Counted from the first letter of the stretch, positions 6,465-40,501 are shown. The stretch: 64,000 nt of DNA from Chloroflexota bacterium (GCA_963662335.2 CAXXVD010000003.1:585875-649874), one strand, 5' to 3'. The notes: generated from the letters alone by a model not told the origin. Translations and numbers: made by a program.

Positions 6465-7178
6465 ATGGCAACGACTGGAACCATCACCAACGCTTGGAAA
6501 GTAAGAACGCTGCCGGACATCTTCTATGAAGATCCGGAGCCAATCGAGGACGGCATGCTGCAAGACCCGTTCATTCGCCGGATCGCCTATCTGCTCGCTG
6601 AGCGCTACGAGGACTCTCCCGACGTGTTCGTCTCCAGCGGCGGCTTCGTCTTCTACAATCCCAAGAACGGCAACGAGCGGGTCGCGCCTGACTGCTACAT
6701 CGCCTTCGGCGTGGACGTGGCGGCCATCTACGAGAACCTGCCCAACTACTGGATTTGGGAGATTGGCAAGCCGCCTGACTTCGTGCTGGAAGTGGCGTCC
6801 AAGAGCACGGCTCAGCGCGACCTGGGGGTGAAACGAGCGCTCTACGAGCGCTTGGGCATAGCCGAGTACTGGCGCATGGATCCGACCGGCGGCGACTTCT
6901 ACGGCCAGCCGCTGGCGGGCGACCGGTTGGTCGACGGCGCGTATGCGCCGTACGAACTAGAGATTGGGCCGGCAGGTACCGTGCGCGGCTACAGCGCGTT
7001 GCTGGACGTGGTGTTCTGCTGGGACGGACGGGAATTCGACGCGCTCGACCCTGAAACCGGCAAGACGATCGGCAAGCGGGAAGCGGCTGAAGCCCGCGCG
7101 GAAGCTGAGCGCCAAGCGCGTCTTGAAGCCGAAGCCGAACTCGCCCGGCTGAGAGCGCAACTCCGCGAACGGGATTAG
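6465..7178 (+). CDS. Uma2 family endonuclease-like protein with C-terminal coiled coil
   Basis: VAPDCYIAFGV, PPDFVLEVASKST, KRALYERLGIAEYW. Confidence 0.9.
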   Translation: MATTGTITNAWKVRTLPDIFYEDPEPIEDGMLQDPFIRRIAYLLAERYEDSPDVFVSSGGFVFYNPKNGNERVAPDCYIAFGVDVAAIYENLPNYWIWEIGKPPDFVLEVASKSTAQRDLGVKRALYERLGIAEYWRMDPTGGDFYGQPLAGDRLVDGAYAPYELEIGPAGTVRGYSALLDVVFCWDGREFDALDPETGKTIGKREAAEARAEAERQARLEAEAELARLRAQLRERD

Positions 7179-31688: not shown

Positions 31689-31982
31689 GGCTAGGGGCTA
31701 ATGCGAGGCAACGAAGAAGGAGGCACGAACACTACCCAGTCCCCGCATACCGTACGTGCTCATGCATGTGCGATTCGCTAGGCGCTTTCTACCGTCTCTC
31801 ATCCCAGAGGAGGGCCCGGAGCGTACGTGCAGTCGCTTGCGGCGGAGCCGCATCAGGCCAGTGCACGTGCCGACTCTCCGGTAGTAACCGGCATGCGCTC
31901 CGGTAGCGTAGGTTTGCAACCTGCGCCGCCACCGCCATGCGCTGCGGTAGCGTAAGTTGACAACCCGCGCCGGCCCGGCCGG

Positions 31983-32054
31983 AGCCGACGGCCGGATTTG
32001 AACCGGCGGCCTATGGTTTACGAAACCATTGCTCTACCACTGAGCTACGTCGGC
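31983..32054 (-). tRNA. tRNA-Thr (anticodon CGT); CCA not encoded (followed by CCG)
   Basis: GCCGACGTAGCTCAGTGGTAGAGCA-ATGGT-TTCGTAA-ACCAT-AGGCC-GCCGG-TTCAAAT-CCGGC-CGTCGGC-T folds as a cloverleaf. Confidence 0.96.
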
Positions 32055-32300
32055 GTGGCAAATACGTTCCAATTGTACCATACCCGTGCCTCGCCAACTC
32101 CCTGCCCGTCCGCTGGCAGCCCTTGTGTCCCGGCGGCGACGGTCACGTGCGCAGAGACTCCCTACCGTTGCCATGCGCACATGAGACCGCGAGCGCAACG
32201 CGAGCGTAAGCCTCTGGCAAACTCGCCCTAATCTTGGTAGGTTAAAGTTGCTCGCGAGCCCAGTGCGCACGGACGAGCGGCTTAGCGGACACTATCGTAC

Positions 32301-33401
32301 GTGCCTACCACGATTGCAGAGAGAACCATCGCCACGACACCGCAGCTTACGCACACGCCGACGTCGTCGAAACCGCCAACTCCGGCGGAAGCGCCAACTT
32401 CGTCGCAGACGCAGGTTTCGCCTAAGCCGCCGAAACGTCCCGGCATCGAGCGGGGTGACACCGCGCGGGAGGCCGCGCGCAAGACCCTGCGCTTCCATTT
32501 CAGCCGCATGTTGAAGCACGAAGCCGGCACGATCGTCGGCAGCGACATCGAGGAACTCCACGACATGCGCGTGGCCGTGCGCCGGATGCGCGCGGCGGTG
32601 CAGTTGTTACGCCCGTATCTTCCCAAGAAGCGCGCCGCTTCCCTGCGCAAGGACCTGCGGCGTCTGGGCCGCGCCCTGGGCCCCACGCGCGACTACGACG
32701 TGATGCTGGCCAACCTCGAGACCTACCGCGCGGCAATGCCGGCGCACATCCAAGACGGGCTCACGCCGCTCGCGCGGCGTTGGCAGAAGCGGCGCGTGCG
32801 GGCGCGCCGGACGATGCTGCGGTACCTGACAAGCAAACGCTACCGCACGCTCAAGCGCGAGTTGGCCGCTTTCCTCGAACCCGCGGGCGCGTCCCCACAA
32901 CCGGGCGCGCCTGAATATCCCCAGAACGCCGCCGTCGGGCCGCAGCCGCTCGTGGCTGCCGCGGCTCCGGGCCTGGTTGGCGCCCGCTATGAGAAACTGC
33001 TGGCATACGGCCCGTCACTCCACGGCGCGTCCATAGAGACGCTGCACGACCTGCGCATCGACTGCAAGCGCCTGCGCTATGCCCTGGAGTTCCTGCGCGA
33101 AATCCTGATCCCGCCGGCCGCGGCGGCGATCGAGGACGTCAAGCGCGCCCAAGACCACCTGGGCGACCTGAACGACGCCTACGTGGCCGGAACCGTCCTG
33201 CGCACGTTCTTGGAGAAACGGCAGCGCGACCGCGACGACGGGCACTACCCGGCCGCCGCCAAGGAAGCGCTCTGCGGCTACCTGGCGTTTTGCGACGACC
33301 GGGCGCGGACGAACGCCCAGACGTTTCCGGCGCTTTGGCAGCATCTCACCGGAGACGAGTTCCGCCAGCGCCTGCACGAGATCATGAATACCGCGCCGTG
33401 A
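32301..33401 (+). CDS. CHAD domain polyphosphate-binding protein
   Basis: LHDMRVAVRRMR, LG..RD.DV, LHDLRIDCKRLRY, QDHLGDLND. Confidence 0.93.
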   Translation: MPTTIAERTIATTPQLTHTPTSSKPPTPAEAPTSSQTQVSPKPPKRPGIERGDTAREAARKTLRFHFSRMLKHEAGTIVGSDIEELHDMRVAVRRMRAAVQLLRPYLPKKRAASLRKDLRRLGRALGPTRDYDVMLANLETYRAAMPAHIQDGLTPLARRWQKRRVRARRTMLRYLTSKRYRTLKRELAAFLEPAGASPQPGAPEYPQNAAVGPQPLVAAAAPGLVGARYEKLLAYGPSLHGASIETLHDLRIDCKRLRYALEFLREILIPPAAAAIEDVKRAQDHLGDLNDAYVAGTVLRTFLEKRQRDRDDGHYPAAAKEALCGYLAFCDDRARTNAQTFPALWQHLTGDEFRQRLHEIMNTAP

Positions 33402-33447
33402 GGCCGCGGCCGCGCTTGCGGGATAGGCAGCGCAACGAGGAGCGCAC

Positions 33448-35121
33448 ATGACCGGAGAACGGATTGCCGTCATCGACATTGGCTCCAATTCCGCGCGCCT
33501 GGCGCTCTTGGAGGTGTATGAAGACCGCGCGTTCAAGCTGGTAGATGAACTCCGCGAGACGCTGCGGCTGGGCGAACAGCTTGACGCGGACGGCAACCTC
33601 ACGGCGGAAGCGATCCAGCGCACGTTGGAAATCTGCCGCGTGCTGGCGCGCTTCTGCACGGCGCACCGCGTGACGCACGTCATCGGCGTTGCCACCAGCG
33701 CCCTGCGCCGCGCCCGCAACGGGCCGGCGGTCGTCGACCGCATCGCGGCCGAAACCGGCCTGCCCATCCGCATCATTTCGGGCGAACAGGAAGCCTACTA
33801 CGACTTCGTGGCGGCGGTGAATAGCTCCGCCGCGGCGGATAGCGTGGTGGTTGACATTGGCGGCGGCAGCGCGCAAATCGTCCGCGCCCACCAGCGCGCG
33901 GCCACCCACATGGCTAGCCTGCCGCTCGGCGCAATCACGCTCACCAGCGCGTTCCTGAACCGCGATCGACCGACGAACAAGCAGATACGCGCGCTCGAGA
34001 GACACATCCAGGCCAATTTGCGCACGCTCTCCTGGCTCCACGAAGACGGCGCCGCCGACGCAACCGCTGACGCACGCGCGGCAAATGGCGCGCCGGGCGC
34101 CGCGGCCGCTCTCGCATCCAACGGCGGGCCCGTCTTGATCGGCATCGGCGGCGCCGTGCGCAACCTGGCAAAGATCTACCGGCGGCAGTCCGGCTATCCC
34201 CTCCACTTGCTCCACGGCATGAGCGTCCCCATGGAAGCCGTAGAAGAGATATACGCAACGCTCAGAAAGCTCAACCTGGAGCAACGGCGCAAGGTGCCCG
34301 GTCTTTCCACCAAGCGGGCGGACATCATCGTGGCGGGAGCGGCGGTGGTGTGTGCCCTGGCGCGGGAGATTGGCGCTTCCGCTTTGGCCATCAGCGGCCG
34401 GGGCCTGCGCGAGGGGCTATTCTTCAATCATGTTCTGGGCGGAGAACTCGTGGAACCGCGCGTGCCCGACCCGGCGCTCTTCGGCGCGACCAACCTCATG
34501 CGCTACTACAACGTGGATGAAACCCACGCCAACCACGTGGCCAACCTGGCGCTCTCGCTCTTCGCTCAACTCGCGCCGCTGCACGGGCTGGACGCCAACG
34601 CGCGCAAACTGCTCCACATTGCCGCGCTGCTCCACGACGTGGGCGTGGCCGTTAACTACTACAACCACGACGAGCACGGCTTCTACCTGCTCACGCGCAC
34701 GGGCATCGACGGCCTGACCCACCGGGAGTTGCTGATCGTGGCCTGCCTTGTAGCCGCGCACAACGGCAACGTCGGCCCCCTGAAACGCTGGCCGGAATAC
34801 CGCTCGCTCCTGCACAAGCGCGACGCTGACGCCGTAGCCAAACTCAGCGCGCTCCTGCAACTCAGCGAGGCGCTCGACCGCAGCGAGTCCGGGCTGGTGG
34901 AAGCCGTGCGGTGTGAGATTGTGGACAGCCGCCAAGTAACGCTCCATCTCGCCGCAGACCCCGACGCCGTGTGCGAACGCCGCGAAACGCAGGCAATGCT
35001 TACTGACATTGCAGCAGCATTTGGTGTACACTTTACGTTGGACTACGCGCACGAACATTTGGGGGGCGCGCACGCTGAGAGCGCGCCCACGGCGGCGTCC
35101 GCGAAGAAGGCAACACACTAG
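33448..35121 (+). CDS. ppx: Ppx/GppA exopolyphosphatase with C-terminal HD domain
   Basis: IDIGSNS, ATSALR, ISGEQEA, DIGGGS, GLREG, LLHDVG. Confidence 0.95.
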   Translation: MTGERIAVIDIGSNSARLALLEVYEDRAFKLVDELRETLRLGEQLDADGNLTAEAIQRTLEICRVLARFCTAHRVTHVIGVATSALRRARNGPAVVDRIAAETGLPIRIISGEQEAYYDFVAAVNSSAAADSVVVDIGGGSAQIVRAHQRAATHMASLPLGAITLTSAFLNRDRPTNKQIRALERHIQANLRTLSWLHEDGAADATADARAANGAPGAAAALASNGGPVLIGIGGAVRNLAKIYRRQSGYPLHLLHGMSVPMEAVEEIYATLRKLNLEQRRKVPGLSTKRADIIVAGAAVVCALAREIGASALAISGRGLREGLFFNHVLGGELVEPRVPDPALFGATNLMRYYNVDETHANHVANLALSLFAQLAPLHGLDANARKLLHIAALLHDVGVAVNYYNHDEHGFYLLTRTGIDGLTHRELLIVACLVAAHNGNVGPLKRWPEYRSLLHKRDADAVAKLSALLQLSEALDRSESGLVEAVRCEIVDSRQVTLHLAADPDAVCERRETQAMLTDIAAAFGVHFTLDYAHEHLGGAHAESAPTAASAKKATH

Positions 35122-35144
35122 TGTGAGACCAGGAGATACCGCCA

Positions 35145-35870
35145 GTGGCTTTGAAGAAGATCCGCGGGCTCGGCCTGAACAAGAAGTATCCCGGCCGCCT
35201 GATCGTGGTGGAGGGCTGCGACGGTTCCGGCAAGAGCACCCAACTCCACCTCCTGCGCGTCTGGTTGCAGTCGCAGGGGTATCCGGTGGTCTACACCGAG
35301 TGGAACTCGTCGGCCATCGTGAAGCAGGCGACGCGGCGGGCGAAGCGCAAAGAGTTGCTCACGCCCACCACGTTTAGCCTCATCCACGCCTGCGACTTTG
35401 CCGATCGCTACGAGAAGGTCATCCTGCCGCCGCTCCACGCCGGCTGCATCGTGCTGGCCGACCGCTACGTCTACACCGCCTACGCGCGGGACGTGGCGCG
35501 CGGCTGCGACCTGCCCTGGGTGCGCAACACCTACCGCTTTGCCGTGAAGCCCACCATCGCCTTCTACTTCCATGCGCCGTTGGAGGTCTCGATCTCGCGC
35601 ATCCTCTTTGGCCGCCCGTCGCTGAAATACTACGAGGCCGGCATGGATACGGGCCTCTCGCTGGATCCGGTGGAGAGCTTCAAGCTGTTTCAAGGCAAGA
35701 TCAAAGAGCAGTACGATAGTATGGCCCGCAACGAACAGTTCGTCGTGATAGACGCCACGCGCACGATTCACGAGACGTGGGAGGAAGTGCAAAAGGTCGT
35801 GCTGGAGAAGCTGGCGGACTACGAGCCGCCGTCCAAACAAAACCTCCTCTCTCAGGGCATCGTCGCATAG
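35145..35870 (+). CDS. Thymidylate-kinase-fold protein 1 (intact P-loop; candidate PPK3 catalytic subunit)
   Basis: VEGCDGSGKSTQ, LADRY; TEWNSS where dTMP kinases have TREP. Confidence 0.8.
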   Translation: MALKKIRGLGLNKKYPGRLIVVEGCDGSGKSTQLHLLRVWLQSQGYPVVYTEWNSSAIVKQATRRAKRKELLTPTTFSLIHACDFADRYEKVILPPLHAGCIVLADRYVYTAYARDVARGCDLPWVRNTYRFAVKPTIAFYFHAPLEVSISRILFGRPSLKYYEAGMDTGLSLDPVESFKLFQGKIKEQYDSMARNEQFVVIDATRTIHETWEEVQKVVLEKLADYEPPSKQNLLSQGIVA

Positions 35871-35897
35871 CCCTCTCCGGCGGGAAAGAGGGAAGTC

Positions 35898-36653
35898 TTG
35901 GCAAGCGAAAAGGGAGATGAACGAGTGTCATCCGTGCTGCCGGTGCGTGCGCGCTTCTACGGCTGCGGGCTGCCATACCTGGACGACCTGGAGCCTACCG
36001 GGCCGTTGATCGTCATCGAAGGCTCGGATTGTTCCGGGCGTTCCACCCAGACGCAGATGCTCAAGGAGTCGTTGGAAGCGGCCGGGCACGCCGTGCTGGA
36101 GATGGGCATCCGCCGTTCGGACCTCATGGCAAAGGCCATTTCCGCCGCCAAGCGGGGCAATCTGCTGGGCAAGACCACGCTCAGCCTGCTCTACGCCACG
36201 GACCTGGCCGACCAGTTGGAGAACCGCCTGGTGCCGGCGATGCAGGCCGGTTTCGTGGTGCTGGCCGACCGCTACATATACACGCTCATGGCGCGGGACC
36301 TGGCGCGGGGCGCGGACCTGAAGTGGCTGAAGCGCCTCTTCGGCATCGCGCTGGAGCCGGACTTGATCATCTTCCTGGACGCGGAGCCGGAGGTGCTCTT
36401 CCACCGCACGTTGGCGAAGTACGGCGAACTGAACTACTGGGAGTCCGGCATGGATCTGCCCATGGGCAGCAGCATGTTCGAGAGCTTTCTCAAGTACCAG
36501 GCGTCGCTGCGCAAGCACTTCCACCGGCTGGGCGACGAGTACGGCTTCCACATGATCGACGCCACGCCCAGCCCCAAGAAGATCCACAAGCAGATTAGCG
36601 CGGTGGTTTCCGGCTACCTGGCGGAATTGACGCAGCAGTCAGCCGACCGCTAG
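35898..36653 (+). CDS. Thymidylate-kinase-fold protein 2 (P-loop Lys to Arg; candidate regulatory subunit)
   Basis: IEGSDCSGRSTQ, LADRY; shares the Y.E.GMD...ESF motif with paralogue 1. Confidence 0.78.
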   Translation: MASEKGDERVSSVLPVRARFYGCGLPYLDDLEPTGPLIVIEGSDCSGRSTQTQMLKESLEAAGHAVLEMGIRRSDLMAKAISAAKRGNLLGKTTLSLLYATDLADQLENRLVPAMQAGFVVLADRYIYTLMARDLARGADLKWLKRLFGIALEPDLIIFLDAEPEVLFHRTLAKYGELNYWESGMDLPMGSSMFESFLKYQASLRKHFHRLGDEYGFHMIDATPSPKKIHKQISAVVSGYLAELTQQSADR

Positions 36654-36667
36654 CGCCAAACGGGCCG

Positions 36668-37063
36668 CTAGTCGTCCAGCGCGTGGAGGAGCGTGCGCAC
36701 CCGCGCTTCGATTTGATCCCGGATGCCGCGCACCACGGCCGCCGGCTGTCCGCTGGGATCCGGGAGCCCCCAGTCCTCCACCGGCCCAAGCGCCGCCGGG
36801 CACGATTCGTCGATGGCGCAGCCCATGGTGATGATTCTATCCGCCCAGTCGGCCAACTCCTGGGTAAGCAGCGCCGGCCGGTGACCGGCCAAACTGACGC
36901 CCCGCTCGGCCATCACCTGCGCCGCGATCGGATTCACCCGCGCGCCCGGCTCCGTTCCCGCCGAACGCGCCTCCGCCTTGCCGCCGGCCAGGTGGCGCAG
37001 GAACGCCTCCGCCATCTGGCTGCGGCCGGCATTGTGGACGCAGACGAAGAGCACGCGCATCAT
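36668..37063 (-). CDS. arsC: Arsenate reductase, LMW-PTP fold
   Basis: CVHNAGRSQMAE; second Cys pair MGC...SCP; DW.LPDP. Confidence 0.9.
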   Translation of the reverse strand: MMRVLFVCVHNAGRSQMAEAFLRHLAGGKAEARSAGTEPGARVNPIAAQVMAERGVSLAGHRPALLTQELADWADRIITMGCAIDESCPAALGPVEDWGLPDPSGQPAAVVRGIRDQIEARVRTLLHALDD

Positions 37064-37110
37064 CGCAGGTTCCTTCCCCATCTCACCCAACAGGTTTCCC
37101 CCTCTCCCCC

Positions 37111-37171
37111 GTAGCGCGGGGGCTTGTCCCCCGCTGGAAGCTGACACGTAGCGCGGGGGCTTGTCCCCCGC
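37111..37171. repeat. Two direct GTAG REPs, family C (GTAGCGCGGGGGCTTGTCCCCCGC)
   Basis: Copies at 37111 and 37148; also 40880-40900 (reverse) and four copies in 47819-48077. Confidence 0.9.
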
Positions 37172-37187: not shown

Positions 37188-37859
37188 TCAATCCACCTGC
37201 TTCGAGAGGTTGAGGTCCAGCATCTTGCCGGTCACCAGGTAGATCACGCGCTCGGCGATGTTGGTGGCGCGGTCCGCCGTGCGCTCCAGGTCGTGGGTCA
37301 CCCAGAGCAAGTAGGTGGCCCGTTGGATGCTGCGGGGGTCTCTGATCATGTAGAGCAGCAACTCGTGGTAGATTTGCTCGTGGAGCGCGTCCACGTCGTC
37401 GTCCGCGTCGCACACCTGCCGCGCCAGGTCTACGTCGCGGGAGACCAGCGCGTCGATGCTCTCGCGGAGCATTGTAATCGCCATGTCCGCCATGCGCGGG
37501 ATGTCGATCAGGGGCTTCAGCGGCGGCTCGTCGCCCATCATGAGGCTGATCTTGCCGATGCCTTCCGCGTAGTCGCCCATGCGCTCCAACTCGACCGCAA
37601 TGTGCAGCAGCGCAATGACCCACCGCAGGTCGCGGGCGGCGGGTTGTTGGGTAGCGAGCAGGTCGACGCAGCGCTCCTCGATGGCAAAGCGCTTCTCGTC
37701 GATAACGTCATCGAACGCTACCACGGCATGGGACGCCTCCAGGTCACGTTCCCGCAAGGCGTCGATGGCGTGCGTAATAGCCTTCTCCACCATGCTGGCC
37801 AGCGCGAGAATGCCGTCCTGGATCTCTTCTAGCTGGGTCTCGACGTTCGTGCGCGCCAT
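37188..37859 (-). CDS. phoU: Phosphate signalling protein PhoU
   Basis: QQPAARDLR, ELERMGDYA, DDDVD, LERTADRATNIAE. Confidence 0.97.
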   Translation of the reverse strand: MARTNVETQLEEIQDGILALASMVEKAITHAIDALRERDLEASHAVVAFDDVIDEKRFAIEERCVDLLATQQPAARDLRWVIALLHIAVELERMGDYAEGIGKISLMMGDEPPLKPLIDIPRMADMAITMLRESIDALVSRDVDLARQVCDADDDVDALHEQIYHELLLYMIRDPRSIQRATYLLWVTHDLERTADRATNIAERVIYLVTGKMLDLNLSKQVD

Positions 37860-38369: not shown

Positions 38370-39800
38370 TCACGATTCCCGCGCGTTGTCGGCCGCGGCC
38401 GGCAGGGTCACCGTAAACGTCGTGCCCTGGCCCTCCACGCTCTCGGCGTCGATCGCGCCGCCGTGCGCCTGCACCACGTGCTTCACGATGGCCAGTCCCA
38501 GGCCGAAGCCCTCGCTGTGGCGGGAGCGGTCCACCTTGTAGAAGCGCTCGAAGACGTGGGGCAGGTGCTTGCGGGGGATGCCCATGCCGGTGTCGCGCAC
38601 GCGTAGGCGGACGCTGCCGTTCTCCGCGTGCGCCGAGAGCAGTATGTGCCCGCGCTTGGACGTGAACTTGAAGGCATTGTGCAGCAGGTTGCTCAAGACC
38701 TGGCGCAGCTTCTCCTCGTCGCCGCGGACCCGCGGCAGGCGCTCCGGCAGGGTCACGTCGAGCGCAATCTTCTTCTTCTCCGCCTGCTGGCGGTGCGCCT
38801 CCTGTAGTTCCGCCACGAGCGGGCGCAGATCCAACGGCGTGAGTTCCAGGCCGGCCTGCTCGCTCTCCAGCCGGGAAAGTTCCATCAACTCGTCCACCAT
38901 CGCGGCCATGCGGTCCACGTCGCTGTTGATGCGGCGCAGGAAGTCCTTGGCGCGCTTCTTGTCTTTCAGCGCGCCGCTCTCCAGCGACTCGACCAGGCCC
39001 TTCACCGCGGCCAGCGGCCCGCGCAGTTCGTGGGAGACGTTGCTCACGAACTCCCGGCGGGTCGTCTCCACCTGGCGAATGCGCGTGAGGTCGTGCATCG
39101 TCAGCAGCACGCTGGAGTCGCCGTGTTCGGCCAGCGGCGTGGTGATCACGCTGAGATATTTCGCGCCCCACTGCGCCATTTCCACCTCGCCGTGCTGCAC
39201 CGCGCCCTCCGATGCGCAGCGGGTGACGAGGTGCTGCACGCTGTAGTCGCGGATGACCTCGCTGCAGCGCCGGCCGAGCGCCTCTCCGCCGGTGAGATTG
39301 AGTATCTGTTCGGCGGCGTGATTTACCAGCACGATGCGGCCGGCGCCGTCGATGACGACCACGCCGTCAGCCATGGTGTTGAGCACGGCGGTCAACTTGC
39401 CGCGCTCCAGCGAGAGGTCGCGCACCACGTCGCGCACGGAAGCGGCCATGCGGTTGAAGGCCTGGGCCAGTTCCTGGGTCTCGCGGCTGTCCTGGGCCTG
39501 GACGCGGTAATCGAGTTGGCCGGCGGCGAGTTGATGGGCGGCCTCGGTGAGCGCGCCAAGCGAGCGCGCCGCGCCGGCCGCGGCGGCGTAGCCCGCCAGC
39601 GCCGCCAACGCCACGCCGGCCGCGCCGATCACACCGAGCGCAACGAGGTCGCGCCCAACACCCGCCGCCGCGTCTCTGCCAACGCCCGCAACGAAATAGG
39701 CGCCGGCCGCGCCGAGCGTGAGCACAACCAGCGCGGCGCCGGCCAACGTGACGCGCCATTGCAGCGAACGTCGACTTCGTCGCAGATGAGGAAATTTCAT
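38370..39800 (-). CDS. phoR: PhoR-like histidine kinase (TM-HAMP-PAS-HisKA-HATPase)
   Basis: RREFVSNVSHELR, NLLHNAFKF, DTGMGI, FERFYKVD, GLGLAIVKH; next to phoU. Confidence 0.85.
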   Translation of the reverse strand: MKFPHLRRSRRSLQWRVTLAGAALVVLTLGAAGAYFVAGVGRDAAAGVGRDLVALGVIGAAGVALAALAGYAAAAGAARSLGALTEAAHQLAAGQLDYRVQAQDSRETQELAQAFNRMAASVRDVVRDLSLERGKLTAVLNTMADGVVVIDGAGRIVLVNHAAEQILNLTGGEALGRRCSEVIRDYSVQHLVTRCASEGAVQHGEVEMAQWGAKYLSVITTPLAEHGDSSVLLTMHDLTRIRQVETTRREFVSNVSHELRGPLAAVKGLVESLESGALKDKKRAKDFLRRINSDVDRMAAMVDELMELSRLESEQAGLELTPLDLRPLVAELQEAHRQQAEKKKIALDVTLPERLPRVRGDEEKLRQVLSNLLHNAFKFTSKRGHILLSAHAENGSVRLRVRDTGMGIPRKHLPHVFERFYKVDRSRHSEGFGLGLAIVKHVVQAHGGAIDAESVEGQGTTFTVTLPAAADNARES

Positions 39801-40501
39801 GCTTCAAACCGGTAGCCCACGCCCCGCACGGTCACGATGCGGGTCGGTTCGCTGGGTTCCGCCTCGATCTTCTCCCGCAGCCGGCGCACGTGCACGTCCA
39901 CCGTCCGGCTGTCGCCCACCCAATCGAAGCCCCAGATGCGCTCCAGGATCTGGTCGCGGCTGAAGACCCGGTTGCGGCCGGACATGAGCAGCGCCAGCAG
40001 GCTGAATTCCTTGGGCTTGAGGGCCAGCGCGCGGTCGCCCAGGGTTGCGGTGTGGCTGCCGAGGTTTAGCTCCAGGTCGGCCGCGCGGAGCACGGTGGCG
40101 GCGGCGTCCTCCTGGGGTCGATTCTTGCCGCCCGGCCCCGCCCGGCGGCGCACGGCGCGCATCCGCGCCAGCAACTCGCGCGTGCTGAAGGGCTTCACCA
40201 CGTAGTCGTCCGCGCCCAGTTCCAGGCCGACCACCCGGTCAACCTCTTCACCCTTTGCCGTGAGCATGATGATCGGCGCGGCCGTCTCCTGGCGCAGGAT
40301 GCGGCAGACTTCCAGGCCGTCGAGCACCGGCAGCATGATGTCGAGGATGATGAGGTCGGGCCGCGCCTCTCGCGCCAGTTCCAGACCCTCTTCGCCGTCC
40401 CGGGCGCTGTGCACCGCGTAGCCGTCCTGCTCCAGGCGGTAGCGCAATGCCTCCTGCAGGTTGTCGTCATCTTCGATGATCAGCACGGTTTCGCGTGGCA
40501 A
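39797..40501 (-). CDS. phoB: OmpR/PhoB family response regulator
   Basis: LDIMLP, GADDYVVKPF, RTVDVHVRRLREK; ATGA overlap with the kinase gene. Confidence 0.82.
   Translation of the reverse strand: MPRETVLIIEDDDNLQEALRYRLEQDGYAVHSARDGEEGLELAREARPDLIILDIMLPVLDGLEVCRILRQETAAPIIMLTAKGEEVDRVVGLELGADDYVVKPFSTRELLARMRAVRRRAGPGGKNRPQEDAAATVLRAADLELNLGSHTATLGDRALALKPKEFSLLALLMSGRNRVFSRDQILERIWGFDWVGDSRTVDVHVRRLREKIEAEPSEPTRIVTVRGVGYRFEA

Follow-up and report, generated by a model that had tools for sequence, protein, structure and literature searches.

A predicted family-3 polyphosphate kinase pair encoded with an exopolyphosphatase and a CHAD-domain protein in an uncultured Chloroflexota bacterium

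Four genes in a 64,000-nucleotide stretch of the genome of an uncultured Chloroflexota bacterium (GCA_963662335.2 CAXXVD010000003.1:585875-649874; hereafter the window, within which positions are counted) very probably make up a complete polyphosphate (polyP) module. They encode, in this order, a CHAD-domain protein, the exopolyphosphatase Ppx, and two paralogues with a thymidylate kinase (Tmk) fold, here called K1 and K2, which judging from their sequences are likely orthologous to the two subunits, one catalytic (cPPK3) and one regulatory (rPPK3), that form the family-3 polyphosphate kinase of Sulfolobus (Table 1). All four genes lie on the plus strand, separated by intergenic gaps of 46, 23, and 27 bp. 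The PPK3 family and its predicted occurrence in bacteria have already been published, and the operon is a further, predicted member.

The characterised PPK3 is that of Sulfolobus acidocaldarius (SaPPK3), described by Hofmann et al. (J Biol Chem 2026, PMC12995831; preprint 10.1101/2024.08.28.610084). Saci_2019 (cPPK3) makes polyP from ATP as well as ATP from ADP and polyP, and Saci_2020 (rPPK3), inactive apart from traces of ADP, boosts the activity about tenfold, the complex behaving as an alpha2beta2 tetramer in gel filtration. The specific activity is 50-fold higher towards ATP formation, and polyP was made only with an ATP-recycling system. Deoxythymidine monophosphate (dTMP) kinase activity was found for Saci_0893 and was absent from Saci_2019 and Saci_2020. 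The inactivity of rPPK3 is put down to the arginine of the DRX motif, which “is replaced in rPPK3s.” In the predicted PPK3 operons the pair is accompanied by PPX, CHAD, SixA, or Pst genes. Most of the organisms concerned are without PPK1 and PPK2, and the authors propose that one of PPK1 and PPK3 took the place of the other in situ (PMC12995831).

A first-pass annotation of the window, made from the sequence alone, had pointed to a catalytic plus regulatory family-3 kinase beside ppx in Sulfolobus, and such a system does exist in Saci_2019/Saci_2020. The same annotation knew of no characterised bacterial example. The idea of a bacterial system is not new, bacterial pairs next to PPX/CHAD having been predicted for “a few bacteria,” in the words of the abstract (PMC12995831). 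The literature searched nonetheless yielded no characterised PPK3-type enzyme from a bacterium, and to that extent the statement holds. The “PPK3” of biocatalysis papers we take to be a PPK2-family enzyme.

Structural homology places both kinase-like proteins with PPK3. The best match of K1 in the PDB was ST1543 (STK_15430; 2plr, 4nzy, 4rzx, and 5h70) of Sulfurisphaera tokodaii (E = 1.3e-59, 205 bits), the best true Tmk following at 4e-21; K2 hit the same chain (E = 2.8e-39, 138 bits), with the next match at 5.8e-11. An AlphaFold model of K2 (predicted local distance difference test score, 85.4) had 2plr/5h70 as its nearest fold (template modelling score, 0.89 to 0.91). ST1543 was deposited as a dTMP kinase and is treated as a cPPK3 homologue in PMC12995831. 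Among solved structures it is the closest to K1 as well as to K2, and the alignment covers the fold throughout, with the Y.E.G.D lid insert, but it is an archaeal catalytic subunit, from which the window K2 departs at the Walker-A lysine and in the EWNSS stretch discussed below.

Neither protein matched the PPK2 profile (PF03976) at E values up to 0.01. Both pass the Pfam threshold for Thymidylate_kin and fall just under that of the NCBIfam dTMP kinase equivalog TIGR00041 (81.8 bits for K1 and 82.2 for K2; cut-off, 83.25). The first-pass annotation had expected pipelines to mislabel such genes as tmk. For that claim these Pfam and NCBIfam scores are the whole basis, because in the sequence collection consulted the K1 cluster had three members, all without a name, and the exact K2 sequence was absent.

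To place K1 and K2 phylogenetically, we built a careful tree of 83 rows comprising the window pair, pairs from 22 taxonomically spread loci out of 80, 11 archaeal pairs, and 15 canonical Tmks; an odd open reading frame, L103, was left out. The archaeal pairs came from a search of 301 genomes in the phylum holding locus L051. Nine pairs with the order ppx-K1-K2 and a short K2 were termed Sulfolobaceae-type, the basis for the name including the K1 of L092, which reads like chain 2plr over the residues compared. Canonical Tmks (15 rows) formed a group with 100/100 support, K1 (34 rows) one with 96/83, and K2 (34 rows) one with 99/96, the Sulfolobaceae-type subunits falling inside the K1 and K2 groups, respectively. 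The two window proteins thus belong to two PPK3 clades set apart from canonical Tmk, and the grouping with canonical Tmk that the first-pass annotation had named as refuting was not seen. As a separate observation, the Sulfolobaceae-type K2 (L084-L092) nests inside the K2 clade, the matching K1 being sister to all other K1; this may be a long-branch effect.

The residues point the same way. K1 and K2 were aligned with the 15 true Tmks, and their columns were counted over 83 sequences each. The P-loops read GCDGSGKST in K1 and GSDCSGRST in K2, and both proteins have Y.E.GMD ... ESF in common as well as an insert of about eight residues after the lid relative to canonical Tmk. REPGG of true Tmk is represented by EWNSS in K1 and G.RRS in K2, the arginine of DRAQH by Phe in K1 and Leu in K2, and the tyrosine of AYQG by Arg in both; the proline of REPGG, the arginine of DRAQH, and the tyrosine of AYQG are invariant in 15/15 true Tmks. 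An “ADR” in K1 lies three columns beyond the DRAQH position and contains a different arginine. K1 and K2 share with canonical Tmk the P-loop kinase fold with its P-loop, DRX, and lid arginine, but differ from it in clade, in scoring under the equivalog cut-off, and in their replaced dTMP-site signatures.

K1 keeps its ATP-site residues. Its Walker A is intact (Lys30), and DRX Arg107 and lid Arg152 are present and invariant. EWNSS, Arg157, and Lys161 are found in all 83 K1 sequences and are without counterpart in K2, and in 73/92 pairs K1 carries more positive charge than K2. Arg157/Lys161 and this excess of charge would be compatible with the basic cleft that PMC12995831 describes as conserved in cPPK3 and not in rPPK3. 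In K2, Arg48 replaces the Walker-A lysine, and the DRX arginine is retained (D124-R125-Y126), as are Arg133, Arg137, and lid Arg170 (82/83). Glu60, Tyr99, and Trp181 are conserved in K2 and peculiar to it, and K2 also bears an N-terminal [FY]-Y-G-x-x-L-P motif (Tyr in 73/83, Pro in 73/83) that is missing from K1 and from the Sulfolobaceae-type K2.

All that the first-pass annotation had observed in these genes was borne out: the open reading frame listing gives four co-oriented genes with gaps within the 23 to 46 bp described, both kinase paralogues lack the dTMP kinase signatures, and the shared lid motif and the two P-loops are found in the translations and the alignment. In its description of an active plus pseudo-kinase pair, “pseudo-kinase” may overstate the case for K2, which keeps the DRX arginine lost from the characterised regulatory subunit.

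The rest of the genome (3.23 Mb in 5 contigs, 96% complete) is consistent with a role of the pair in polyP metabolism. Searches for a separate tmk and for ppk1/ppk2 had been called for by the first-pass annotation. A canonical tmk lies elsewhere (G000:C1:608777-609361; PF02223, 154.5 bits; TIGR00041, 166 bits), and no match to PPK1 (PF02503, PF13090) or PPK2 (PF03976) was found in the genome at this completeness, so that what the annotation had noted for the window extends to the whole genome by profile search. PPK1 and PPK2 were likewise not found in the 16 further genomes searched from the genus. For Ppx/GppA and for CHAD, the window's genome gave a single gene each, both within the operon. 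Because no PPK1 or PPK2 was found there, K1-K2 is the only candidate polyP synthase of this genome.

The K1-K2 pairing is widespread. In a scan of species genomes with K1, 579 of the 588 stretches listed were confirmed, so that at least 579 species genomes have a K1-type gene; the best 80 loci were used for locus counts. By phylum these were Acidobacteriota (49) and Chloroflexota (11), with one to three loci each from other bacterial phyla and 3 archaeal loci. K1 was followed by an adjacent, co-oriented K2 in 80/80 loci, one K1 and one K2 being cut by contig ends and one K2 being in two pieces. Using iterated profiles, PPX was detected in 60/80 loci (within 300 bp in 48) and CHAD in 37/80; where 4 kb or more was available on each side (54 loci), PPX was present in 42 and CHAD in 30. 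Linkage of the pair, and in most loci its linkage to PPX, is therefore conserved, as the first-pass annotation had asked to see. The order CHAD-ppx-K1-K2 was confined to 7 close relatives among the 80 loci. In a sample of the phylum, a K1 orthologue (E up to 1e-45) was found in 77/401 genomes and 32/217 genera. When the window's own genome was taken together with 40 relatives (n = 41), 28 had the K1-K2 pair and all 41 a canonical tmk, and PPK1 was present in 0/28 pair-carrying genomes versus 5/13 of the others.

Two irregular loci deserve mention. The K2 of an Ignavibacteriota locus (L016:6670-7340) matches in two pieces abutting at 6954, which suggests a frameshift or sequencing error. In six genomes of one family of the same class (G020, G026, G032, G034, G038, and G040), the match of one gene of the pair to the Tmk profile is limited to profile positions 1-138.

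Homology, clade membership, linkage, and genome inventory all support the first-pass reading of the operon as a module that binds, degrades, and synthesises polyP, the functions of its parts being assigned by homology. On the model of the Sulfolobus enzyme, K1 would catalyse the reversible reaction ADP + polyP(n) <-> ATP + polyP(n-1), its P-loop holding ATP/ADP and the polyP running along a basic cleft at what is the dTMP site in true Tmks. K2 would have little or no activity of its own and would join K1 in a hetero-oligomer (alpha2beta2 in Sulfolobus), raising K1 activity about tenfold. The direction would be set by the ATP/ADP ratio, a high ratio leading to polyP synthesis and a low one to ATP regeneration. 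Ppx would hydrolyse polyP to phosphate, and the CHAD protein would bind it, CHAD domains being described as polyP-binding modules (PMC6537752).

The operon resembles that of SaPPK3 (sixA-ppx-2019-2020-CHAD; PMC12995831) in its adjacent Tmk-fold paralogues beside ppx and CHAD, its separate tmk, and the lack of PPK1 and PPK2; in the tree the Sulfolobaceae-type subunits share their two clades with K1 and K2, and K1 keeps the P-loop lysine, the DRX arginine, and the extra basic residues. It differs in having a bacterial host, in the order CHAD-ppx-K1-K2, and in that no sixA was seen in the window operon. The window K2 has an arginine at both the DRX and the Walker-A position, whereas the DRX residue of the Sulfolobaceae-type K2 is Gly, and it bears an N-terminal extension of about 30 residues, with FYG..LP, that the latter lacks.

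Several findings weigh against the reading of the operon as a polyP module on the Sulfolobus model. The window K2 keeps the DRX arginine, the loss of which is the published basis of rPPK3 inactivity, and its role may therefore differ. The lineage of the characterised enzyme is derived and sits on a long branch, that of the Sulfolobaceae-type K2 measuring 2.72 changes per column in a quick tree. PPX was unlinked in 20/80 loci, and of the 54 loci with 4 kb or more on each side, 12 showed none. PPK2 accompanied the pair in 4/28 genomes (8/13 of those without the pair), indicating that some carriers have a further polyP kinase beside it. Finally, related genomes are non-independent samples by reason of kinship.

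The two regulatory subunit types differ most clearly at the DRX position, which is Gly (A-D-G-Y) in 9/9 Sulfolobaceae-type K2 and Arg in 82/83 window-type K2, the pairs from Nitrososphaerota included and the 83rd being a gap. At the Walker-A position the nine Sulfolobaceae-type K2 have Lys (4) or Arg (5), and the others have Arg in 82/83, across at least 12 phyla. Since K1 and the true Tmks all carry the DRX arginine, its loss is the derived state. We therefore read it, from the distribution of residues, as particular to the lineage of the characterised enzyme and apparently not a defining trait of the K2 clade. The DRX arginine is not replaced in the window K2, to which the published explanation of rPPK3 inactivity thus cannot be extended.

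This leads to the strongest of the alternatives, which we regard as possible but on balance unlikely, namely, that in bacterial and Nitrososphaerota PPK3 the K2 subunit keeps a working phosphate/nucleotide site and acts either as an allosteric sensor of ATP/ADP or of the polyP end, or as a second, slow catalytic site, the complex being regulated unlike SaPPK3. An arginine so uniform in Walker A across at least 12 phyla speaks for a fixed substitution and not for decay; Arg125 of DRX, Arg133, Arg137, and the lid Arg170 are kept just as widely; the glycine in DRX is restricted to the nine Sulfolobaceae-type K2, 4 of which still have the Walker-A lysine; and K2 conserves residues and an N-terminal motif of its own. 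Lys-to-Arg mutants of Walker A usually keep nucleotide binding and lose turnover, which also counts in favour of a retained site. The lack in K2 of Arg157, Lys161, and EWNSS, all confined to K1, tells against it, the residues conserved in K2 could serve the fold or the subunit interface alone, and Saci_2020 was inactive apart from ADP traces (PMC12995831). One might tentatively suppose that in most PPK3 systems, that of the window included, K2 is not a dead kinase but a conserved ligand-binding subunit, its Arg-type P-loop invariant and its DRX and lid arginines intact, that by sensing ATP/ADP or holding the polyP end determines which way the enzyme runs, the DRX-less Sulfolobus rPPK3 being a derived special case. 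If so, the published Sulfolobus mechanism would not carry over to bacteria.

It is improbable, in our estimation, that the pair serves in the cell solely as a polyP-dependent ADP kinase, i.e., as an energy buffer, with the polymer coming from another, unrecognised enzyme, even if the 50-fold preference of SaPPK3 for ATP formation and its need of ATP recycling to make polyP (PMC12995831) would fit such a role. Such an enzyme would have to be something other than PPK1 or PPK2, neither of which was found in the window genome or the 16 further genomes of the genus. We know of no other bacterial polyP synthase family. The reaction is also reversible, and growing cells have a high ATP/ADP ratio, an argument put forward in PMC12995831.

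We give very little credence to K1 and/or K2 being nucleotide kinases, be it an unusual dTMP kinase or another (deoxy)nucleoside monophosphate kinase, with an incidental or regulatory linkage to ppx: their Thymidylate_kin and near-threshold TIGR00041 scores, the first description of ST1543 as a dTMP kinase (still in its PDB titles), and the intact P-loop, DRX, and lid arginines of K1 are outweighed by the absence of dTMP kinase activity from Saci_2019 and Saci_2020 and its presence in Saci_0893 (PMC12995831), the 166-bit canonical tmk of the genome, the replacement in both proteins of residues invariant in true Tmks, and the association of the pair with PPX in 60/80 loci.

With the polyP module as the favoured reading, two further systems offer a comparison. 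The two-domain class II PPK2 of Pseudomonas aeruginosa (PA3455) also joins an active unit to a degenerate paralogous oligomerisation unit and prefers polyP-driven nucleotide phosphorylation, but it belongs to another family, is a single fused polypeptide, and uses AMP as acceptor where PPK3 uses ADP (PMC12995831). Bacterial ppk1-ppx operons likewise set a kinase beside an exopolyphosphatase, often with CHAD and Pho genes; the PPK1 fold is unrelated, however, and none of the 28 pair-carrying genomes was found to have PPK1.

For the genus of the window, K1-K2 is the only candidate route to polyP. PPK3 has been defined on one archaeal enzyme, K1-type genes being present in hundreds of species genomes by the count above, and the matter bears on the annotation of phosphorus storage in soil and sediment bacteria, in which these genes pass the Pfam thymidylate kinase threshold. 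The active-site state of the window-type K2 is, moreover, the common one and unlike that of the sole characterised regulatory subunit, which bears on how general the Sulfolobus mechanism is.

Table 1. Operon genes, flanking genes, and upstream element, with positions in the window
Feature	Position	Strand	Remarks
tRNA-Thr, anticodon CGT	31981..32054	-	Flanked by the EamA gene and the operon; about 160 bp separate it from the conserved element downstream
Conserved upstream element, 32 nucleotides	32214..32245	+	Sole conserved block 5' of CHAD when the window is compared with 7 close relatives
CHAD-domain protein	32301..33401	+	366 amino acids, GTG start; PF05235, 2.9e-60, residues 63-301
Ppx exopolyphosphatase	33448..35121	+	557 amino acids, ATG start; PF02541, 8.3e-57, and domain III PF21447, 6.5e-25
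K1, predicted catalytic PPK3 subunit (cPPK3 orthologue)	35145..35870	+	241 amino acids, GTG start; Thymidylate_kin PF02223, 76.4 bits
K2, predicted regulatory-type PPK3 subunit (rPPK3 orthologue)	35898..36653	+	251 amino acids, TTG start; PF02223, 74.4 bits
ArsC-like low-molecular-weight phosphatase	36668..37147	-	Convergent with K2, 14 bp between stops; below all NCBIfam cut-offs
phoU	37188..37859	-	TIGR02135, 199.9 bits (cut-off, 130.25)
PhoR/PnpS-like histidine kinase	38370..39800	-	PnpS/PhoR-type models match best, below their cut-offs
PhoB-like response regulator	39797..40501	-	PhoB-type models match best, below their cut-offs

Both non-kinase proteins of the operon have peculiarities. 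The CHAD protein starts with a Pro/Thr-rich N-terminal extension of about 60 residues, the N-terminal codons being conserved at the DNA level in relatives. Ppx scores 290.1 bits against TIGR03706, below the cut-off of 307, probably because of an Ala/Gly-rich insert of about 30 residues (about 205-235), which divides the Ppx-GppA match into two. A PPX-K1 fusion suspected from long open frames over K1 in three relatives was ruled out, PPX and K1 being in different frames.

Downstream, the phoU-phoR-phoB genes are convergent with the operon, and these neighbours are retained in 7/7 close relatives. Their adjacency suggests, by position, a possible link of the operon to phosphate sensing. The ArsC-like phosphatase gene beside K2 is also kept in 7/7 close relatives, and a similar gene is found near the pair in L060, L079, and L081. 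Genes beyond phoB (encoding GNAT, GH38, TauD, an AMP-binding enzyme, and gamma-glutamyltranspeptidase) are without evident link to phosphate, and neither SixA nor Pst genes were seen beside the window operon. Upstream of the operon, Pfam identifies an EamA transporter and a DksA/TraR zinc-finger protein.

The 32-nucleotide element in front of the operon is found in 8 members of the genus (the window, L004-L009, and L029), always upstream of CHAD. It occurs once in the 3.23-Mb genome when searched as a degenerate pattern with up to 3 mismatches, and a position weight matrix scan of the genome gave 62.9 bits at 32214-32245 and 2.1 for the next best position, i.e., no second site. It is probably the promoter/operator of the operon and, by our own reading, could be a weak -35 (TGGCAA) and -10 (TAGGTT) spaced by 17 nucleotides. 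A consensus promoter scan did not flag it, and a scan for promoters and terminators returned nothing above shuffled sequences at the operon ends. Two other identities were considered and set aside: a Pho box, since with no second genomic copy there is no link to a regulon, and a sigma-54 promoter, since the window and its relatives do not have the same GG-GC spacing. The distance from the element to the CHAD start is about 55 nucleotides in the window versus about 200 in the relatives, pointing to a shorter leader in the window.

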